Assembly (NCBI GenBank): GCA_014161675.1 | Contig: GCA_014161675.1_4760.2 | DNA: 53,227 nt | From: a phage | Direction: 5' to 3' (one strand) | Shown: piece after piece, positions 9,593 to 19,321 of the stretch | How positions within the stretch are numbered: the first letter of the stretch is position 1 | Layout: each line of letters opens with the position of its first letter | The notes under the pieces: generated by a model | Databases searched by the model: none | Told to the model about the DNA's origin: nothing | Seen by the model: only the letters and a program-made list of their open reading frames with translations | Made by a program: the position numbers and the translations under genes

Positions 9593-11083
9593 ATGGCAGA
9601 TTTGAAATATGGATCTACTGTAGGTGGATCTCCCATTTGGACGCAAGGAAACTTGACGATCCAGCCAGCGGGGGATCAGCTTTTCTACAAAGGTCATAAA
9701 ATCTATACCGCTTTTGATAGACCTTCGGCTACCGATTTTGATGCTGTTAGTGCATCCGAAGGTGGCACATTTCAAAAGCAAGTTCATTTCGAGGAAGGTT
9801 TAAGCGTAGGTAGCGCATCGGCTGGAGAAACCAAAAAGAATGGTATCTTTAAAGGTCAGAGCGACGCTGCTAATTTTGACGGCGTAAGCTGGGGTTTGCA
9901 TTCATGGAAGTCAATCGGCTTTGTTAATGCCCGTGATGGCGTTATCATGGCGTATATTGACACCACAACGGGCGAATTTAAGTCTAAAGGGACTATCGAA
10001 GGGACAACCATTAAAGACACAGGTCAACGCGTCTATAGCCCTGTTAATAAACCAACGAATAATGATTTAGATTTGGTGTCTCGTCGCGGTGATACCCTAA
10101 CAGGAACATATAATTTAAACACTGTCACTGTTAAACTATCGGTTGATTCGAAATTAATTGCAAGGGAACGTGATTTAATTAATTTTGATGCGACTAAGAT
10201 CTATTATGGTAACGTTCTTGATACGTTGGTCTTCCGAAGTAAAGATGAGCCTACCATTTTTGTTAATGGCAGAGAAGGTCGTTTTTATCACACCAACAAT
10301 AAACCAACTAAAGCCGATGTTGGGCTAGGCAATGTCACCAATGATGCACAGGTTAAACGTGCTGGTGATATTATGGAAGGTAACTTGCAAGCGCCTAGAA
10401 TGTTGGCGACAAACGATCCTGCTGGTCCTAATGAATTGGTTCGTTTGAGCTACTTTGAGAGAAAATCAATGGTAGCAAATCCAACCATCATTGGAAACGT
10501 TGATTGGAACACTCTTATTAATCGCGGTATCTATCGTGTGGAAAATGCTGGGTCGGGTACTAATAAACCGTCCGATAGCTATTATAACGGCGTTTTGATG
10601 GTATATCGCCCAGAAGATGCGGTCGGTACTCGTCGAATTGTTCAGGTGTATTATCCTGAATCTATTGACCATCCGATGTGCTGGCGTTCGTGTTCTAATG
10701 AATCATGGACTGCATGGAACTATGTAGATCACCGTAAATTAGCAGATATTCGCTATGTTAACGTAACTGGCGATACCATGACAGGACCGTTAACTGTTCC
10801 GGCTGCAAACGGTGTTAGAACGGCTAGAGGTGCATATAATGGTGATAACTACTATGCCGGGTTAAATAGTGCTGATGGTACTGCTATGATTCACCGTATC
10901 AGCGATATTAAAGCCACCGAAAAATTGGGTATTACACATGATTCTAAAGCTGTTTTCATTAAATCGCGTGGAAATACTCAAGACACAGACCGCTATGAAC
11001 TTTACCACGAAGGCCATAAACCGACACCCGCAGAGGTCGGCGCGGTTCCACTTAATGCGGTGATTGATTTTGGTACTTTCTAA
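9593..11083 (+). CDS. 36: Long tail fibre distal subunit gp36 (enlarged)
   Basis: 496 aa; N-terminus MADLKYGSTVGGSPIWTQGNL resembles recalled T4 gp36 (MADLKVGSTTGGSVIWHQGN). Contains KPT..(D/E).G motifs. More than twice the T4 length. Confidence 0.8.
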   Translation: MADLKYGSTVGGSPIWTQGNLTIQPAGDQLFYKGHKIYTAFDRPSATDFDAVSASEGGTFQKQVHFEEGLSVGSASAGETKKNGIFKGQSDAANFDGVSWGLHSWKSIGFVNARDGVIMAYIDTTTGEFKSKGTIEGTTIKDTGQRVYSPVNKPTNNDLDLVSRRGDTLTGTYNLNTVTVKLSVDSKLIARERDLINFDATKIYYGNVLDTLVFRSKDEPTIFVNGREGRFYHTNNKPTKADVGLGNVTNDAQVKRAGDIMEGNLQAPRMLATNDPAGPNELVRLSYFERKSMVANPTIIGNVDWNTLINRGIYRVENAGSGTNKPSDSYYNGVLMVYRPEDAVGTRRIVQVYYPESIDHPMCWRSCSNESWTAWNYVDHRKLADIRYVNVTGDTMTGPLTVPAANGVRTARGAYNGDNYYAGLNSADGTAMIHRISDIKATEKLGITHDSKAVFIKSRGNTQDTDRYELYHEGHKPTPAEVGAVPLNAVIDFGTF

Positions 11084-13978: not shown

Positions 13979-14218
13979 ATGGTCTATAATATCGTCATTG
14001 GTGCTTTGTCTAATTTCGGAATGAAATTATTGTCAAAGTTAATTAGTGAAAAGATGCTCACTAAAATTTTCTTCTATTGCGCTCGTCGTCTTGCGGCTTA
14101 TACCAATACGCCAATTGATGATCGTTTTGTGGAAGAACTTTATAAGGAGTTTAATAAAGATCAGTCAGAAGATAGTAACGAGCAAGATAAACCTAGTGAT
14201 AGTCAACTACCTAAATAA
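13979..14218 (+). CDS. Hypothetical protein (79 aa) between gene 37 and holin t
   Basis: ORF with AAGGAGA upstream; occupies the slot where gene 38 sits in T4 but shows no recognisable gp38 similarity. Confidence 0.45.
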   Translation: MVYNIVIGALSNFGMKLLSKLISEKMLTKIFFYCARRLAAYTNTPIDDRFVEELYKEFNKDQSEDSNEQDKPSDSQLPK

Positions 14219-14251
14219 GAGTACACTGTCATAGTTATCTTAGGGCATTAT

Positions 14252-14908
14252 ATGCAAGTTTCTGAAAAAGAGAAAGACTTTGCTATCTCAAATGTCCTGC
14301 GCGCTATTTTCACAACTAAAAGCACGGAGTTGCTCGTACTTCGTGTTTTTGCTGCCGTCGTGTTGTCCATATTAGCATTTGTCGTTTATAGTAAAAACGA
14401 GTTATTTGCGCTTTATAAAGAGACTCGTTATGAGACTTATGCTCACATTCTCCAGGTAGAGAAAGACCGCAATTTTGATAATGCAGCACAGGAGCAGTTA
14501 CAGATAGTTCATGTGTCGGCTGATGCCGATTTTTCTGCTGTTTTTAGTTTTCGTCCGAAAAACCTAAACTATTTTGTTGATTTGGTGGCATATGAAGGAA
14601 AGCTACCGCATACAATCGATGAAAAAAATTTAGGCGGATTCCCTATCAATAAAACGAGTGAAGAATATCGTAGGCATCTTTTAGGTAAATCATATTTTAC
14701 CGATAAAGATTTCCAGTATATTCCATCAAGAGAAAAGAAATTAGAGAATATCGATATAGGTTTCATGTATTCTTGTCCTATATTCAATCTCGATAATGTC
14801 TATTCTGGTAGTATCGCCATTTCATGGAAGAATAAACCGGATATTGACATTGAGAATTTAGATACTCTTTGCAATCAATCTGCCAGAATCCTCGGAAGGA
14901 TTAGATAA
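14252..14908 (+). CDS. t: Holin T
   Basis: 218 aa; recalled T4 holin similarity (YETY, LQIVHVSADADFSAVFSFRPKNLNYFVDLVAYEGKLP, MYSCPIFNLDNVYSG, ARILGR). Confidence 0.9.
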   Translation: MQVSEKEKDFAISNVLRAIFTTKSTELLVLRVFAAVVLSILAFVVYSKNELFALYKETRYETYAHILQVEKDRNFDNAAQEQLQIVHVSADADFSAVFSFRPKNLNYFVDLVAYEGKLPHTIDEKNLGGFPINKTSEEYRRHLLGKSYFTDKDFQYIPSREKKLENIDIGFMYSCPIFNLDNVYSGSIAISWKNKPDIDIENLDTLCNQSARILGRIR

Positions 14909-14914
14909 CTTAAA

Positions 14915-14946
14915 GGGGAAGCCTTTCGGCCTCCCCTTCTTTTTAT
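14915..14946. terminator. Terminator hairpin between convergent genes (t and the 82-aa ORF)
   Basis: Imperfect GC-rich stem GGGGAAGCC-TTTC-GGCCTCCCC followed by TTCTTTTTATT on the plus strand; the minus-strand U-tract is weaker. Confidence 0.6.
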
Positions 14947-15191
14947 TGGCGCATAGAAGCCCCTGAATCACATTTTGACGCTGTATGATGAAAACATGTA
15001 GCGTACCAGTCATCGGCTTGCTTGTCTTCGTCAGAAAACGCGTAATTTCGTTGTACGCCGTTTTCTACTTTGACCAGTGCAATAGCTGTTTCTGGAAGAT
15101 CAATCAATCGGACAAAATCACCATCTTCCCACTCTACACGAGCAATATCATAGCCCATCTCAAAGTATACAATCGCTTGTTCTAATTTCAT
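14943..15191 (-). CDS. Hypothetical protein (82 aa)
   Basis: ORF convergent with t. N-terminus MKLEQAIVYFEMGYDIARVEW loosely resembles a small phage DUF family; not verified. Confidence 0.45.
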   Translation of the reverse strand: MKLEQAIVYFEMGYDIARVEWEDGDFVRLIDLPETAIALVKVENGVQRNYAFSDEDKQADDWYATCFHHTASKCDSGASMRQ

Positions 15192-15511
15192 TCTGGAAAC
15201 TTCCCGTAAACATTCTCTGCCAGCTTACGTGCATCTTTTACAATATCTTTCATGTAATGACTATAATTTTTAGCTAGATCAATGATGCAATCAACAAAGA
15301 AGTAATAGCGTCGCAGTGCTACCAGCTCAACATCTTCAAGATGACCATTTTCTCCAATCGCTGAAATATGTTTAAATTCCTTTCGGATCGCGTCCATCGC
15401 TACATTAACTTCTTTTATAATATCTTTCGTATTATATGCACCTCGACTAATCAAAATTTTGGTTAGGTCTTCTGCTTTTTCGTGAAAGTTGTCAATTTCA
15501 AACTCGATCAT
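15188..15511 (-). CDS. Hypothetical protein, tandem paralog A
   Basis: Start placed at the ATG after GAGAGGTGA (the track start is a GTG 6 nt upstream). The C-terminus ...KDARKLAENVYGKF parallels the neighbouring gene. Confidence 0.5.
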   Translation of the reverse strand: MIEFEIDNFHEKAEDLTKILISRGAYNTKDIIKEVNVAMDAIRKEFKHISAIGENGHLEDVELVALRRYYFFVDCIIDLAKNYSHYMKDIVKDARKLAENVYGKFPE

Positions 15512-15624
15512 AATCACCTCTCATAATTTCACGCTGTTGTGTCAACATTTTTCGTGGTTTGCTAATTCTATACATTGTAATAGCATAACCAGTGCAATTT
15601 TCAATGATTCATCATCTTTCATAA

Positions 15625-15957
15625 TCAAAATTTACCGAAAATATTCTCTGTCATAATTCTTGCTTCGTCGATTATTTTCGTCATGTTCATGGTGTAGTTA
15701 TGATCATTTAGCGCCTTAATGACAACGAGCAAGGAATCTAAAAACACTCGATACCGGGTATATTCTACACTATTTGTGAATACCGATGTTTTCTCTACTT
15801 TATCGATCAGATAGCCTAAAGCCGATAGCGCCTCGTTTACTTCCCTTGTTACTTTATCTGCGCTAAACAACACCGGATAAAGACGCGGTGTGATTAACCG
15901 CGCTGCCTCTTTCAATTCGGTCGCTTTCCATGATTCATATTTGTCATAGTTAAACAT
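15625..15957 (-). CDS. Hypothetical protein, tandem paralog B
   Basis: 110 aa; C-terminal ...IDEARIMTENIFGKF and the preceding Y..(F/Y)..D..(L/I) region align with paralog A. Confidence 0.5.
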   Translation of the reverse strand: MFNYDKYESWKATELKEAARLITPRLYPVLFSADKVTREVNEALSALGYLIDKVEKTSVFTNSVEYTRYRVFLDSLLVVIKALNDHNYTMNMTKIIDEARIMTENIFGKF

Positions 15958-15969
15958 TGTATAATCTCC

Positions 15970-16302
15970 TTACAGATGAAAACCTGTTACGATCACCGCA
16001 TCGATCTTACCGCTAGGAATAAACGGTTCGCCCTCTTTTATTTCAACTTTGAATTGATGCCATTTCGCTAATACTTCTTCCGGTACACCCAGCGATTCGG
16101 CGTCTGCTTTAGTTTCATCCATAATCCAACTAGGCTGCATGAGAGCATAGTTTACATAGTCCATTTCTGGGGTCATGTCATCAATGTTAATATATTTGCA
16201 ATTGACGCGTTTCAGAATTTCAAATTCTTTATTGTCAACCTGTACCATGTATAATTCAGTAGTTTCTGGAATCAGTTCCCACACAATCAGTACATTTTTC
16301 AT
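15970..16302 (-). CDS. Hypothetical protein (110 aa)
   Basis: ORF in the early-gene island; tight spacing with neighbours. Confidence 0.45.
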   Translation of the reverse strand: MKNVLIVWELIPETTELYMVQVDNKEFEILKRVNCKYINIDDMTPEMDYVNYALMQPSWIMDETKADAESLGVPEEVLAKWHQFKVEIKEGEPFIPSGKIDAVIVTGFHL

Positions 16303-16310
16303 AGTTCACC

Positions 16311-16679
16311 TCACTTAACAAAGATTTTCTTTAATGCTTTCAGGATCGTTGCTTCCGGCGCTTCTTCCGGTGGAGGAAGCAATTCTACAACTTCCTCTTC
16401 CAACTCGATATAGTCTACCAGATATTCTACATAGAATGCAAGTGCTTCCATGAAATTAAATGCTACATCCGATTCACCACAAGCGCCTACATGCATTGTA
16501 TAAACATCACTGCGATCAAGTTTGTGGATGCTTCCCAGATAGTTCCGGTTATACCAGACTTCCCACACTTTCAGCTTTCCAGTTTTGGTTGCTGTTTTAT
16601 AATCGGTTTCGTAGTTGTGCAATTGACGTTGCAAATCATTGATAATAACACATTTTTCGTAATTGTTTTGAATTTCCAT
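16311..16679 (-). CDS. Hypothetical protein (122 aa)
   Basis: ORF in the early-gene island. Confidence 0.45.
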   Translation of the reverse strand: MEIQNNYEKCVIINDLQRQLHNYETDYKTATKTGKLKVWEVWYNRNYLGSIHKLDRSDVYTMHVGACGESDVAFNFMEALAFYVEYLVDYIELEEEVVELLPPPEEAPEATILKALKKIFVK

Positions 16680-16689
16680 GATGTAATCC

Positions 16690-16881
16690 TCACTTATCGT
16701 TAAGAAGTTCTAAAACTTTCTGTCGTACTTTGTCAATATTAGTTGATTCAAAAACTGTACGGTATCCCCAGCTTTGACCGTATGATCGCGAGCAATCCCC
16801 ATATCCCCATTGTTCAACCTGATAGTATTCAAGGAATGGGTGCTGCCGAACTATGATACCATCGCGATTAAAAATTACCAT
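16690..16881 (-). CDS. Hypothetical protein (63 aa)
   Basis: ORF in the early-gene island. Confidence 0.4.
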   Translation of the reverse strand: MVIFNRDGIIVRQHPFLEYYQVEQWGYGDCSRSYGQSWGYRTVFESTNIDKVRQKVLELLNDK

Positions 16882-16904
16882 AATATAATCCTCACGTCAA
16901 CAAC

Positions 16905-17192
16905 TTATTTTCGGTTGTGGTCACGATATGTTTTAAAATATCCCTCGTACCACGGTAAAATATCTGGATTTTTACCACTATACAGACCTTTAACCATCAT
17001 GTCAATAAGGCCATCTGGTGTTTGATAGTTTCCAGCTTTTATAAGCTCTCTGATTAAAATCTCTCTGTATATGTCTTTCGGATCTTCGTAATCAACTTGT
17101 ATTGTGGTTGTTGTCTCGCTTAATTTGGTTTCTGGAGTATCTTGCATCGCCTTCCACCAATCTTTTGTAATCTTCATGTTATTGAATTGCAT
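16905..17192 (-). CDS. Hypothetical protein (95 aa)
   Basis: ORF in the early-gene island. Confidence 0.45.
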   Translation of the reverse strand: MQFNNMKITKDWWKAMQDTPETKLSETTTTIQVDYEDPKDIYREILIRELIKAGNYQTPDGLIDMMVKGLYSGKNPDILPWYEGYFKTYRDHNRK

Positions 17193-17203
17193 AATTTAAC
17201 CTC

Positions 17204-17962
17204 TTACTTGCAAACGTATTGATCTACATCAATTGCTCCACCGAATGTGGGATGACGTTTTTCAAATCGAATAGTTCCGTCGTTTGGTTCGAAAACGGAG
17301 TATTCATATAGATCTTTCTTGCCAACATTCTTATAAAACCCGCCTTTAGTCATAACGGTTTCTTGTACGTTTGCTTTGTGTACGTTGTATTCGTCAATGT
17401 ATACAAAATCAACCATCTTCCCATTTTTAATGGTTACTTTAAGATCTCCTGGTTGATTTCCATATTTGGCATACAGTGGCGCTTCTTTAATTTTTGTGGA
17501 AATTCCATCTTTCATACTCCACTCATAACGAACGGTGCATTGATAGGTAAAAGTTTCGACCTTCGGTTCTTCCACCACTTTTTCTTCCTGTTTCGGTTGT
17601 TCTTCGTCAACCTTCACGGAAGTCTCTGAATCGCTTTCTGACGCAGTTTCTTCTTTAGGTAATACATTCATCAAGTTTTGGATTTGAGCGTTGTATACAG
17701 CCTCCAGTGGCTGAATCTGCCCGATATTGATCATTGTATCACGAACAGTTTTATTCCAGTTGCGTTGCTCTTGTTTCAGAGACGGATCAATCTTAACAGC
17801 TTTAACATATACTTCATGAAGTTTAGAGTCCAGTGCGGAGATTGACTCATTAGCACAAATAAACTTCTCTGATTTGGTAGTAGCTTTAGCGCAATCAAAG
17901 GACGCAGCATTAGCACCGAAAGCAGTAGCGGAAAGAACGATAGCAGCGATAATGTTTTTCAT
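17204..17962 (-). CDS. Secreted LprI-like protein (DUF1311-like N-domain plus Cys-bracketed C-terminal domain)
   Basis: 252 aa. Signal peptide MKNIIAAIVLSATAFGANA. Then ASFDCAKATTKSEKFICANESISALDSKLHEVY...QEQRNWNKTVRD, matching the DUF1311/LprI N-domain pattern. Ser/Glu-rich linker, then a C-terminal domain bracketed by Cys (YQCTVRY...QYVCK). Confidence 0.7.
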   Translation of the reverse strand: MKNIIAAIVLSATAFGANAASFDCAKATTKSEKFICANESISALDSKLHEVYVKAVKIDPSLKQEQRNWNKTVRDTMINIGQIQPLEAVYNAQIQNLMNVLPKEETASESDSETSVKVDEEQPKQEEKVVEEPKVETFTYQCTVRYEWSMKDGISTKIKEAPLYAKYGNQPGDLKVTIKNGKMVDFVYIDEYNVHKANVQETVMTKGGFYKNVGKKDLYEYSVFEPNDGTIRFEKRHPTFGGAIDVDQYVCK

Positions 17963-17996
17963 AATATATTCCTCAATGTTTTGTCTTGATGGGAGT

Positions 17997-18025
17997 ATCT
18001 TACTACTCCCTTAATCCGGTGTCAA
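17997..18025 (-). promoter_or_regulatory. Sigma70-type early promoter
   Basis: Minus strand TTGACA (18020-18025), 17-bp spacer, TAAGAT (17997-18002). The -10 lies inside the inverted repeat GGGAGTA/TACTCCC. Followed by GAGGAA and the ATG at 17962. Confidence 0.6.
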
Positions 18026-18032
18026 CTACTTT

Positions 18033-18245
18033 TTAATTTTTACCCGCTCGTGCATTAATACGCATTTTCTGCATAGCCATGATCTGGCTTACAGCTTCTT
18101 CTTTACGTTCTTGCGTGATAACGTGACCAGATTCCGCAAACTCTCCCGCAACTTCTTCTACGATCTCGCGAACTTGAGAACGTCCAAAGATGCGGTTTCC
18201 TTCGTAGCTCATAAACTCTGTTACTACTTGCTCGATAGATTTCAT
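18033..18245 (-). CDS. Hypothetical protein (70 aa)
   Basis: ORF with AGGAGA upstream and its own promoter. Confidence 0.5.
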   Translation of the reverse strand: MKSIEQVVTEFMSYEGNRIFGRSQVREIVEEVAGEFAESGHVITQERKEEAVSQIMAMQKMRINARAGKN

Positions 18246-18275
18246 GTGATTCTCCTTTCGTTTGTTATGGGAGTA

Positions 18276-18304
18276 TGTTACTACTCCCTTATCTTTACGT
18301 CAAC
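18276..18304 (-). promoter_or_regulatory. Sigma70-type early promoter
   Basis: Minus strand TTGACG (18299-18304), 17-bp spacer, TAACAT (18276-18281), embedded in the same GGGAGTA/TACTCCC inverted repeat. Confidence 0.6.
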
Positions 18305-18587: not shown

Positions 18588-18616
18588 ATAATACTACCGA
18601 TGACCTTTGGCGTCAA
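18588..18616 (-). promoter_or_regulatory. Sigma70-type early promoter
   Basis: Minus strand TTGACG (18611-18616), 17-bp spacer, TATTAT (18588-18593), then ACTCCCATACC. Confidence 0.6.
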
Positions 18617-19292: not shown

Positions 19293-19321
19293 ATTATGCA
19301 ATGCTGGATTTGTGAAGTCAA
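19293..19321 (-). promoter_or_regulatory. Sigma70-type early promoter
   Basis: Minus strand TTGACT (19316-19321), 17-bp spacer, CATAAT (19293-19298), then the ACACCCATACC variant of the shared box. Confidence 0.5.

Follow-up and report, generated by a model that had tools for sequence, protein, structure and literature searches.

Genes and signals between holin t and gene 52

The stretch of phage DNA analyzed here, called the window (53,227 nucleotides), belongs to an RB49-like Krischvirus with 98% DNA identity to RB49 and ~60 Krischvirus genomes. Like T4, it has the gene order t ... gene 52 ... rIIB. Seven minus-strand ORFs (14943–17192; O1 to O7) occupy the slot that holds asiA, arn, and motA in T4, flanked by t and gene 52 as conserved anchors; they are convergent with holin t and correspond to RB49 genes RB49p255–p261. 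These ORFs, their neighbors, and the associated signals are as follows.

14252–14908, plus strand: holin t (Pfam Phage_holin_T, E = 5e-61; 49% identity to T4 t)
14912–14939, bidirectional: terminator hairpin between O1 and t (12-bp GC-rich stem, GAAA loop)
14943–15191, minus strand: O1, 82 aa, candidate Tad2-like (DUF2829) domain (Pfam PF11195; phrog_1048, E = 3e-19)
15188–15511, minus strand: O2, 107 aa from ATG (109 from a GTG at 15517), phrog_9457, O2 type
15542–15622, minus strand: small ORF, a doubtful gene and remnant of RB49p256.1 (26 aa here vs 41 aa in RB49)
15625–15957, minus strand: O3, 110 aa, phrog_9457, O3 type, an optional extra copy
15970–16302, minus strand: O4, 110 aa, acidic (pI 4.5), phrog_4658, 95–100% conserved
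16311–16679, minus strand: O5, 122 aa, homolog of T4 Arn.4 (long reading frame)
16690–16881, minus strand: O6, 63 aa, phrog_6957, 98% conserved
16905–17192, minus strand: O7, 95 aa, phrog_15915, a second allelic hot spot
16977–17005, minus strand: candidate internal sigma-70-like promoter within O7 (TTGACA-17-TATAGT, 11/12 consensus positions)
17204–17962, minus strand: O8, 252 aa, N-terminal LprI-like domain (Pfam LprI, 24.8 bits vs a cut-off of 22)
17997–18025, minus strand: early promoter of the PeSL type (TTGACA-17-TAAGAT with an A-tract; the –10 is flanked by the inverted repeat GGGAGTA/TACTCCC)

All seven minus-strand ORFs between 14943 and 17192 are genuine genes, as judged from their tight packing (intergenic gaps of 8–23 nt within the block, and an ATGA overlap between the O2 stop and the O1 start), a GAGG-type ribosome-binding site on each, dN/dS values of 0–0.5 (mostly <0.25) in comparison with six related phages, and their presence with intact frames in ~60 genomes. 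The remnant of RB49p256.1 is shifted in frame relative to RB49 and SSG23 by an A6-to-A5 homopolymer difference. At O7, the alleles of SSG23 and Makalu have 39–48% identity, with dS values of 1.4–1.5, and in O8 a hydrophobic leader ahead of the LprI-like domain is read as a putative signal peptide. An NCBIfam scan of the O1 to O8 proteins gave no matches, and we found no published account of the RB49 locus tags, of anti-defense in Krischvirus, or of Tad2 in T4-like coliphages.

A block of this kind might be neutral cargo, composed of orphan genes without a current role whose variation reflects drift together with PeSL- or homology-mediated shuffling. In keeping with this idea, ORFan shuffling is known from the hyperplastic regions of RB49 and phi1 (PMC2839356); the neighboring cassette RB49p263, which has flanking PeSLs in RB49, is missing from the window; and RB49p256.1 is frameshifted. 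The low dN/dS values, however, hold for all seven ORFs even at saturated dS, the reading frames are whole across the genomes surveyed, and the translationally coupled O2–O1 pair is preserved in a divergent lineage. We thus consider neutral cargo improbable, and the main reading developed below instead treats these genes as non-core "ORFans" that are probably maintained by purifying selection.

PeSL-type sites occur on the minus strand at 18025 and 18303, with the pattern AAAAA.TAG-TTGAC(A/G)-N17-TAAGAT/TAACAT and a 7-bp inverted repeat (GGGAGTA/TACTCCC); the hairpin at 18025 has a predicted stability of –11.9 kcal/mol (z = –2.0). Both sites combine an intergenic sigma-70 promoter, an A-rich tract, and a stem-loop upstream of ORFans, as described for the PeSL motif class of the phages phi1 and RB49 (Arbiol et al., 2010; PMC2839356). 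The promoter at 17997–18025 most likely drives the genes from O8 to O1. O8, separated from O7 by only 11 nt, is the first gene of this operon and lies outside the seven-ORF interval outlined by the first-pass annotation. The candidate promoter inside O7 has no UP-like A-tract, and a promoter in the 107-nt spacer between O3 and O2 was rejected, as the TTGACA found there is followed by no acceptable –10 element at 16–18 nt. At the other end, the hairpin at 14912–14939, read on the minus strand, has a ΔG of –23.6 kcal/mol (z = –5.0); read on the plus strand, it has –17.5 kcal/mol and a 3' U-run. Its counterpart in phage Ec_Makalu_001 is annotated as a terminator. An early, sigma-70-driven accessory operon would therefore run from the PeSL at 18025 through O8, O7, O6, O5, O4, O3, O2, and O1 to this terminator, and the seven-ORF block would form its promoter-distal part within a hyperplastic region. 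From the promoter motifs and published work on RB49, we infer that the genes of the block are expressed early.

MotA, AsiA, and the retained Arn.4 homolog

In the T4 interval, MotA is the middle-mode activator, AsiA is a co-activator and anti-sigma factor, and Arn is an anti-McrBC protein. The first-pass annotation had suggested that the phage studied here does not use MotA/AsiA middle mode, on the grounds that no such pair was recognizable and that canonical TTGACA promoters were present. These promoters exist, and 25 of the 27 sigma-70-like sites (TTGAC(A/G)-N17-TAnnnT) in the window lie on the minus (transcribed) strand. The missing pair was borne out as well when the search was widened to the window plus the complete RB49 genome. 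Here, tblastn returned nothing for T4 AsiA (best E 0.07–3.1) or T4 MotA (best E 1.8–1.9) and recovered the controls t, gp52, and rIIB at E ≤ 1e-66. A phmmer --max search of all 2079 stop-to-stop segments was likewise empty (best E 1.4 for AsiA and 0.31 for MotA). A Pfam scan of 144 small early-strand ORFs (48 in the window and 96 in RB49) found no AsiA, MotA_activ, or MotCF domains, and the AsiA family phrog_1166, which T4 AsiA itself matches at E = 1e-41, was matched by none of O1 to O8. Promoters of the Mot-box type (TGCTTnA, 11–13 nt, TAnnnT) were no more frequent than expected in 53 kb (2 seen vs 2.33 ± 1.41), and neither match stands upstream of an early gene. The RefSeq annotation of RB49 also names neither motA nor asiA.

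These results support the conclusion that this phage lacks the T4 MotA/AsiA middle-mode switch. Such a phage would use early and late promoters only, and transcript mapping in RB49 in 2002 reportedly gave just these two promoter classes. That RB49-type phages lack MotA and AsiA is already known from work published in 2002–2006: Nolan et al. (2006; PMC1524935) found no motA ortholog or middle-promoter consensus in RB49, credited the same failure in RB49 earlier to Desplats et al. (2002), and listed AsiA only for RB69, 44RR, Aeh1, and KVP40. Our finding agrees with Nolan et al. (2006), who cite Desplats et al. (2002), and is thus correct but not new; even so, a T4-like phage of E. coli without the MotA/AsiA middle switch is a real and instructive contrast to T4.

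A further claim, that the T4 neighborhood had been replaced at this locus, holds only in part. None of the seven ORFs resembles AsiA, Arn, or MotA, and tblastn, phmmer, and Pfam found no Arn homolog in either the window or the complete genome of RB49. O5, however, matches phrog_1594 (E = 6e-25), as does the long reading frame of T4 arn.4 (E = 1e-53), and direct comparison of O5 with T4 arn.4 gave E = 1.8e-4 by tblastn and E = 1.3e-5 by phmmer. The two genes occupy equivalent places in the interval from t to gene 52, and the RB49 annotation of the O5 gene notes similarity to a T4 12.8 kD protein of the AsiA–MotA region. O5 is, by these sequence matches, a retained homolog of Arn.4, and thus the T4 neighborhood has not been wholly replaced.

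The O2/O3 paralogs and their alleles

O2 and O3 had been described from the sequence as tandem paralogs with shared motifs near the C-terminus, and both observations proved sound. Pairwise alignment by BLASTP gave E = 8e-8 with 26% identity over 87 aa, and the phrog_9457 HMM was matched over its full length by O2 (E = 8e-57) and by O3 (E = 2e-43), both of which contain the motifs EVN, RY..F.D, and AR..(A/T)EN..G. In an alignment of 11 distinct members, RY..F.D and (D/E)AR..(A/T)EN(V/I)(Y/F)GKF were kept throughout. AF2 modeled O3 as four helices (pLDDT 84; 4 of 5 AF2 models were of low confidence), and the BFVD model of the O2-type protein of ECD7 superposes on it with TM 0.69–0.73. O2 and O3 are thus true, ancient, and diverged paralogs of a predicted four-helix family. 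This family is confined to Krischvirus in the data searched: only three real clusters emerged when 1.84e9 representatives were searched exhaustively with an HMM, a word-indexed search for remote homologs returned close relatives only, and tblastn returned only Escherichia/Shigella Krischvirus records. A fourth candidate cluster, P0027, was rejected as a spurious ankyrin-repeat protein. Neither the paralog family nor its alleles appear in the searched passages of Arbiol et al. (2010; PMC2839356).

Structural comparison offered no functional analogy for the paralogs, as no informative neighbor was present in the PDB or BFVD: Foldseek of the paralog model against the PDB returned only generic helical or designed proteins (TM ≤ 0.46), and a BFVD search returned family members only. 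A sequence-profile search of the PDB with the O2/O3 family found nothing below E = 0.18, and kinship of the paralogs with AsiA, Arn, or Arn.2 was rejected at hhalign probabilities <1%. These results bear on the idea that O2 and O3 are functional substitutes for AsiA and MotA, binding to sigma-70 or to the RNA polymerase of the host and redirecting transcription, which would give RB49-like phages an unrecognized regulatory step. AsiA is a small all-helical protein, and O2 and O3 are small, predicted to be helical, non-secreted, probably early, and close to t, where T4 has asiA. The paralogs nevertheless do not resemble AsiA in sequence or profile (hhalign probability 0.3%), no sigma-binding protein matches the fold of their model, and transcript mapping in RB49 reportedly found early and late promoter classes only. 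Moreover, divergence of 50% or loss of a copy within one phage species that infects one host species, as described below, is hard to square with an invariant target such as sigma-70 or RNA polymerase. A functional replacement of AsiA/MotA by the paralogs thus finds no support, and we consider it the least probable of the readings weighed here.

The paralogs vary sharply among phages that are otherwise nearly identical. O2 is present in 59 of the 59 Krischvirus records that carry the family, tblastn found O3 in 49 records, and of the 59 records, 42 gave two family copies in a search with P0026. In a comparison that took in seven loci, at least five O2 alleles had 48–54% identity to the copy of the window or RB49, with ~91% DNA identity conserved over the last 41 codons; an O3 allele with 69% identity occurs in kvi, FL38, and AV108, and O3 is absent from ECD7-like phages, from Makalu, and from the divergent contig L011. 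The flanking genes O1, O4, O5, and O6 remain 95–100% identical in phages whose O2/O3 diverge, and dS is 0.9–2.3 in the variant alleles vs 0.0–0.29 in these flanks. The variable segment has the following limits.

15313–15967, no strand: variable cassette segment (O3, the spacer, and the N-terminal two thirds of O2), delimited by blastn breakpoints

At ~15967, immediately past the O4 stop, the alignments to the loci of ECD7-like phages, Makalu, and IMG/VR are lost, and they return inside O2 at ~15313; the kvi alignment continues through a diverged O3 to ~15625 before it breaks, and that of SSG23 is unbroken over the segment at 91%. Breakpoints at the O4 stop and within the conserved 3' codons of O2, with no PeSLs, point to exchange through coding-sequence homology. 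Positive selection was considered and rejected, as dN/dS in the variants is 0.15–0.39 with saturated dS. Saturated dS and low dN/dS favor old alleles exchanged by recombination over rapid diversification in situ, and with dN/dS <0.4 an "arms race" reading would draw only on allele diversity and presence/absence. Thus, O3 together with the first two thirds of the O2 protein forms an allelic hot spot with old alleles under purifying selection, and in few other places do near-identical isolates show such sharp differences. The segment would be swapped between phages by homologous recombination, presumably anchored on one side in the terminal part of O4 and on the other in the conserved C-terminal codons of O2.

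Non-essential early phage proteins often trigger defense systems, and the hot spot might accordingly reflect proteins that are sensed by host abortive-infection or other defenses, or that act in phage–phage competition or superinfection exclusion, so that allele change and O3 loss would be routes of escape. Deep allelic diversity, presence/absence, and conserved flanks fit this possibility as well as they fit our main reading. O2, however, is never lost in 59 genomes, and every allele is under purifying selection, which together suggest that the gene brings its own benefit; we regard sensing or competition as unlikely, although less so than neutral cargo. Under the main reading, O2 would always be present and translationally coupled to O1, with O3 as an optional second copy. 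Consistent with this arrangement, an O2-type gene and a Tad2-like gene with a stop/start overlap are also paired in a divergent relative (holin identity, 88%).

O1, the operon as a whole, and known systems

O1 matches PF11195 with 28.4 bits (cut-off 25, E = 2.4e-6), residues 1–63 aligning with profile positions 1–71 of 73, and PF11195 is also the precomputed label of P0028, which represents its cluster, and of P0030, a divergent homolog. The protein is 97–99% conserved among Krischvirus and 57% in the divergent relative; attempts to widen the family beyond Krischvirus-like phages had no success, and the O1 subfamily is confined to them. Against all PDB sequences, a set assumed to include the solved Tad2 proteins, phmmer and two shallow profile searches (3 sequences) with O1 found no Tad2 at E ≤ 10. 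An AF2 model from a three-sequence alignment had a pLDDT of only 59.5, with the N-terminal part modeled as a strand, and Foldseek of this low-confidence model against the PDB gave no meaningful matches. O1 is thus a candidate divergent DUF2829/Tad2-like protein by Pfam's curated cut-off for one HMM at 28.4 bits. Tad2 (DUF2829) proteins are phage sponges for immune signals (Yirmiya et al., bioRxiv 10.1101/2023.05.01.538930; bioRxiv 10.1101/2025.08.24.671296), and O1 may by analogy sequester a nucleotide immune signal.

Taken together, the locus is best explained as an early sigma-70 accessory operon without MotA/AsiA, in which O5 is an Arn.4 homolog, O1 a Tad2-like protein, and O2/O3 swapped alleles; we give this explanation as a whole a probability of about 0.55. 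Its new points are modest, namely O1 as a Tad2-like candidate sponge and the paralogs as a swap-in/swap-out hot spot among sister phages. As a guess, O2 and O3 would bind a variable host or defense target that differs between E. coli strains, for example a component encoded by a defense system or prophage; a function common to all members would reside in the conserved C-terminal helix (DAR.LAEN.YGKF), and specificity in the variable helices of the N-terminal part. A bolder version, which we hold to be doubtful and about as improbable as sensing by host defenses, makes the O2-type proteins a new Krischvirus-specific modular class of counter-defense that acts with the coupled O1, the N-terminal helices choosing the defense or prophage factor and O3 serving as an optional second specificity. 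If this version were true, the O2/O3 locus would be a swappable "specificity cassette" that tunes the host range of near-identical therapeutic-type coliphages. RB49-like Krischvirus phages are frequent in phage-therapy collections, and should the permissiveness of E. coli strains depend on the O2/O3 differences, this locus could hypothetically serve as both a useful marker and an engineering site.

Three known systems invite comparison. Like Tad2, O1 is a short single-domain protein (82 aa vs 89 aa) that PF11195 covers over nearly the whole domain, and its gene is set among early accessory genes. Unlike Tad2, it has no detectable sequence similarity to the solved proteins, which form homotetramers with a fold of an N-terminal helix and a five-stranded antiparallel sheet, and its subfamily occurs only in Krischvirus-like phages. 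With the hyperplastic regions of RB49 and phi1, in which ORFans are shuffled and PeSL cassettes occur (Arbiol et al., 2010, PMC2839356; Comeau et al., 2014, PMC4122927), the locus shares an ORFan-rich early region, PeSLs at 18025 and 18303, and a PeSL-flanked cassette, RB49p263, that is present in RB49 and absent from the window; it differs from the PeSL cassettes in that the variable O3/O2 segment has no PeSL boundaries. Finally, the T4 interval from t to gene 52 and the block described here share their genomic position, flanked by convergent holin t on one side and by gene 52/rIIB on the other, the strand and early orientation, a content of small non-core genes, and an Arn.4 homolog. In contrast to T4, the window phage has no homologs of AsiA, AsiA.1, Arn, Arn.1–3, MotA, or MotA.1 and no Mot-box promoters, and the six proteins of the block other than O5 fall in other PHROG families.

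Anatomy and promoters of the early-gene island

Megablast of positions 14000-18300 matched 64 phage records, all Escherichia or Shigella Krischvirus, with identities of 98.8% for the closest record, phage FL37, and 98.1% for RB49. Here, seven minus-strand ORFs (O1-O7) are convergent with the holin gene t.

13979-14234 (+): 79-aa Dc5 ORF flanked by the distal tail-fibre gene and t, where RB49 annotates a second, overlapping ORF (RB49p252/p253)
14252-14908 (+): t, holin gene
14912-14939: strong hairpin (-23.6 kcal/mol) closing the O1-O7 block, common to t
14943-15191 (-): O1, Tad2-like
15188-15511 (-): O2, paralog of O3
15542-15622 (-): small ORF RB49p256.1
15625-15957 (-): O3
15970-16302 (-): O4
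16311-16679 (-): O5, Arn.4 homolog
16690-16881 (-): O6
16905-17192 (-): O7
17204-17962 (-): O8, 11 nt upstream of O7
18025-17997: sigma-70-like promoter, intergenic, upstream of O8
18275-18303, 18588-18616, 19293-19321 (-): near-identical promoter cassettes upstream of successive small ORFs

Intergenic gaps in the O1-O7 block are 8-23 nt, apart from the 107 nt that separate O3 from O2; the O2 stop and O1 start overlap as ATGA, every ORF has a GAGG-type ribosome-binding site, and GC content is unremarkable. Nei-Gojobori dN/dS between the window and each of six relatives (RB49, kvi, SSG23, Makalu, and two IMG/VR contigs, the first ECD7-like) was 0-0.5 at every ORF, indicating true protein-coding genes. 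The RB49 counterparts, RB49p255-p261, are each annotated 'hypothetical protein'. The island is a real, well-delimited feature.

The small ORF RB49p256.1 encodes 41 aa in RB49, 36 aa in SSG23, and 26 aa in the window, where a one-base A-run difference (A6 to A5) shortens it, and is missing from kvi; it is probably a non-functional gene or else phase-variable. O8 (252 aa) opens with a hydrophobic leader that reads by eye as a putative signal peptide. An N-terminal domain matching Pfam LprI (lysozyme-inhibitor-like; 24.8 bits, cut-off 22) and an acidic linker rich in Lys and Glu come next, and O8 is a likely early, periplasmic protein.

The promoter upstream of O8 is of the TTGACA type noted in the first-pass annotation. 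The 18025 and 18303 promoters combine an A-tract, a consensus -35, and the inverted repeat GGGAGTA/TACTCCC around -10. The cassettes follow the pattern AAAAA.TAG-TTGAC(G/T)-N17-TAnnAT-ACTCCCAT/ACACCCAT; among those at 18303, 18616, and 19321, only 18303 has the 7-bp repeat around -10 found at 18025. Across the window, 25 of 27 matches to TTGAC-N17-[TC]AnnnT lie on the minus strand.

MotA, AsiA, and the T4 neighborhood

Using AsiA, AsiA.1, Arn, Arn.1-3, MotA, and MotA.1 from the T4 record NC_000866 as queries, we found no tblastn match in the window or the complete RB49 genome, a search that recovered the controls t, gp52, and rIIB; phmmer --max with T4 queries against all 2079 stop-to-stop segments likewise gave none. 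Pfam searches of 48 small minus-strand ORFs in the window and 96 hypothetical ORFs in the rest of RB49 revealed no AsiA, MotA_activ, or MotCF domain, and Mot-box promoter patterns in the window occurred at chance frequency (2 matches, 2.3 expected). Nolan et al. 2006 (PMC1524935) found neither a motA ortholog nor a middle-promoter consensus in RB49, cite Desplats et al. 2002 for the same earlier result, and list AsiA only for RB69, 44RR, Aeh1, and KVP40. The first-pass annotation was therefore right in suggesting that this phage may not use the T4 MotA/AsiA middle mode, yet the point had already been published.

Its related claim, that the asiA-arn-motA neighborhood had been replaced, held for AsiA, Arn, and MotA but not for Arn.4. 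Both O5 (E=6e-25) and the long reading frame of T4 arn.4 (E=1e-53), the gene directly downstream of motA, match phrog_1594, and direct comparisons gave E=1e-4 to 1e-5, indicating that the neighborhood was remodeled rather than replaced outright. RB49p259 carries the annotation 'similar to an hypothetical T4 protein 12.8kD in AsiA-MotA region'.

Separately, among 42 hypothetical ORFs of RB49 (100001-148800), one early ORF matches Pfam GmrSD_N, the N-terminal domain of type IV restriction endonucleases (E=6e-20), and another has a WYL_2 domain (E=1e-9); these ORFs, located outside the window, could possibly encode nuclease or defense-related functions.

Paralogy and allelic exchange at O2/O3

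As proposed from their shared motifs, which are kept throughout the family, O2 and O3 are paralogs: they align by BLASTP (E=8e-8, 26% identity) and both match phrog_9457 over their full lengths. AlphaFold2 predicted four helices for O3 (top model pLDDT 84.2; remaining four 50-69), on which BFVD models of the JEP8 ortholog (TM 0.95) and the ECD7 O2-type protein (TM 0.69-0.73) superpose, so the paralogs are predicted to have one common fold. Structure comparison found no informative PDB neighbor of the O3 model (TM ≤0.46). The family is very small: in an exhaustive HMM search of 1.84 billion representatives it formed just three real clusters, namely the O3 type, the O2 type, and one further type represented by P0026, and tblastn matches to the family were confined to Krischvirus.

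The new part is the allelic variation of this locus among sister phages.

Protein identity to the window copy at five related loci.
kvi: O1 98%; O2 51%; O3 69%; O4-O6 98%; O7 95%; O8 98%
ECD7-like contig: O1 99%; O2 53%; O3 absent; O4-O6 98-100%; O7 94%; O8 98%
Second IMG/VR contig: O1 99%; O2 53%; O3 absent; O4-O6 95-99%; O7 94%; O8 68%
SSG23: O1 99%; O2 50-53%; O3 97%; O4-O6 98-99%; O7 39%; O8 no comparable copy recorded
Makalu: O1 98%; O2 49%; O3 absent; O4-O6 97-98%; O7 46-48%; O8 100% (partial)

At the three loci without O3, DNA alignment stops at ~15967, directly past the O4 stop, and restarts at ~15313 within O2, whose final 41 codons are still ~91% identical. The kvi alignment runs across its diverged O3 and breaks at ~15625; SSG23, with an RB49-type O3, aligns throughout. 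Variant alleles have dS of 0.9-2.3, compared to 0.0-0.29 for flanking genes, with dN/dS of 0.15-0.39, values that point to old alleles moved through recombination rather than to fast evolution in place. Across the collection, 44 records carry an RB49-type O2 and 15 a copy <60% identical; by tblastn, 46 carry an RB49-type O3, 3 carry the 69% allele, and the others gave no O3 match. With P0026 as query, 42 of 59 records had two family copies. The metagenomic contig encoding P0026 has the order O4-end, P0026, Tad2-like gene (57% identical to O1, stop and start overlapping), and holin (88%); the O2-type and Tad2-like pair therefore forms a conserved unit to which O3 is an add-on.

The O7 alleles of SSG23 and Makalu are also deeply diverged, at 39-48% identity and dS of ~1.4-1.5, and O8 has a 68% allele in the second IMG/VR contig; counting O2/O3, the island thus has three or more allelic hot spots that are independent of one another.

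Possible functions and relation to known systems

O1 is a member of the Tad2-like family PF11195 (formerly DUF2829) at the Pfam level only (28.4 bits, cut-off 25, nearly the whole domain); sequence and profile searches linked it to no solved Tad2, and its AlphaFold2 model was too weak for fold comparison. Tad2 proteins, of about 89 aa, are phage sponges for Thoeris signals, and members of the family also inhibit CBASS, Pycsar, and other Thoeris types (bioRxiv 10.1101/2023.05.01.538930; 10.1101/2025.08.24.671296). O1 is a candidate immune-signal sponge.

We assign a probability of about 85% to the descriptive account of the island, comprising operon anatomy, coding status, paralogy, lack of MotA/AsiA, Arn.4 homology, Pfam Tad2-like membership, and allele structure. 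In the proposed mechanism, the promoter/stem-loop (PeSL) cassette at 18025 would drive early expression, O1 would sequester an immune signal, and O2/O3 might, as a tentative guess from their variation, bind a strain-variable host or defense target. Proteins that are half-diverged or dispensable among phages of a single species infecting the same host would be unlikely to act on invariant machinery such as sigma-70, an argument that also counts against the paralogs as an AsiA substitute.

The island is of a known type, the hyperplastic accessory region of RB49-like phages, and its paralog/Tad2-like locus would not surprise specialists. Arbiol et al. 2010 (PMC2839356) described PeSL cassettes as the elements by which ORFans are shuffled in RB49 and phi1 hyperplastic regions, and the 18025 and 18303 promoters fit that description. 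In RB49 and kvi, an additional cassette of ~210 nt, flanked by PeSLs and containing the 51-aa ORF RB49p263, lies between O8 and the next upstream gene, whereas the window (17963-18032, compared to 9965-10260 of the RB49 segment L001) has a single PeSL and no RB49p263, a textbook case of PeSL-mediated insertion or deletion. The O3/O2 exchange boundaries, in contrast, are not PeSLs and differ from those of the RB49/phi1 cassettes; the residual novelty lies in a Krischvirus-only paralog family, its cassette-like allelic exchange, and the adjoining Tad2-like gene.
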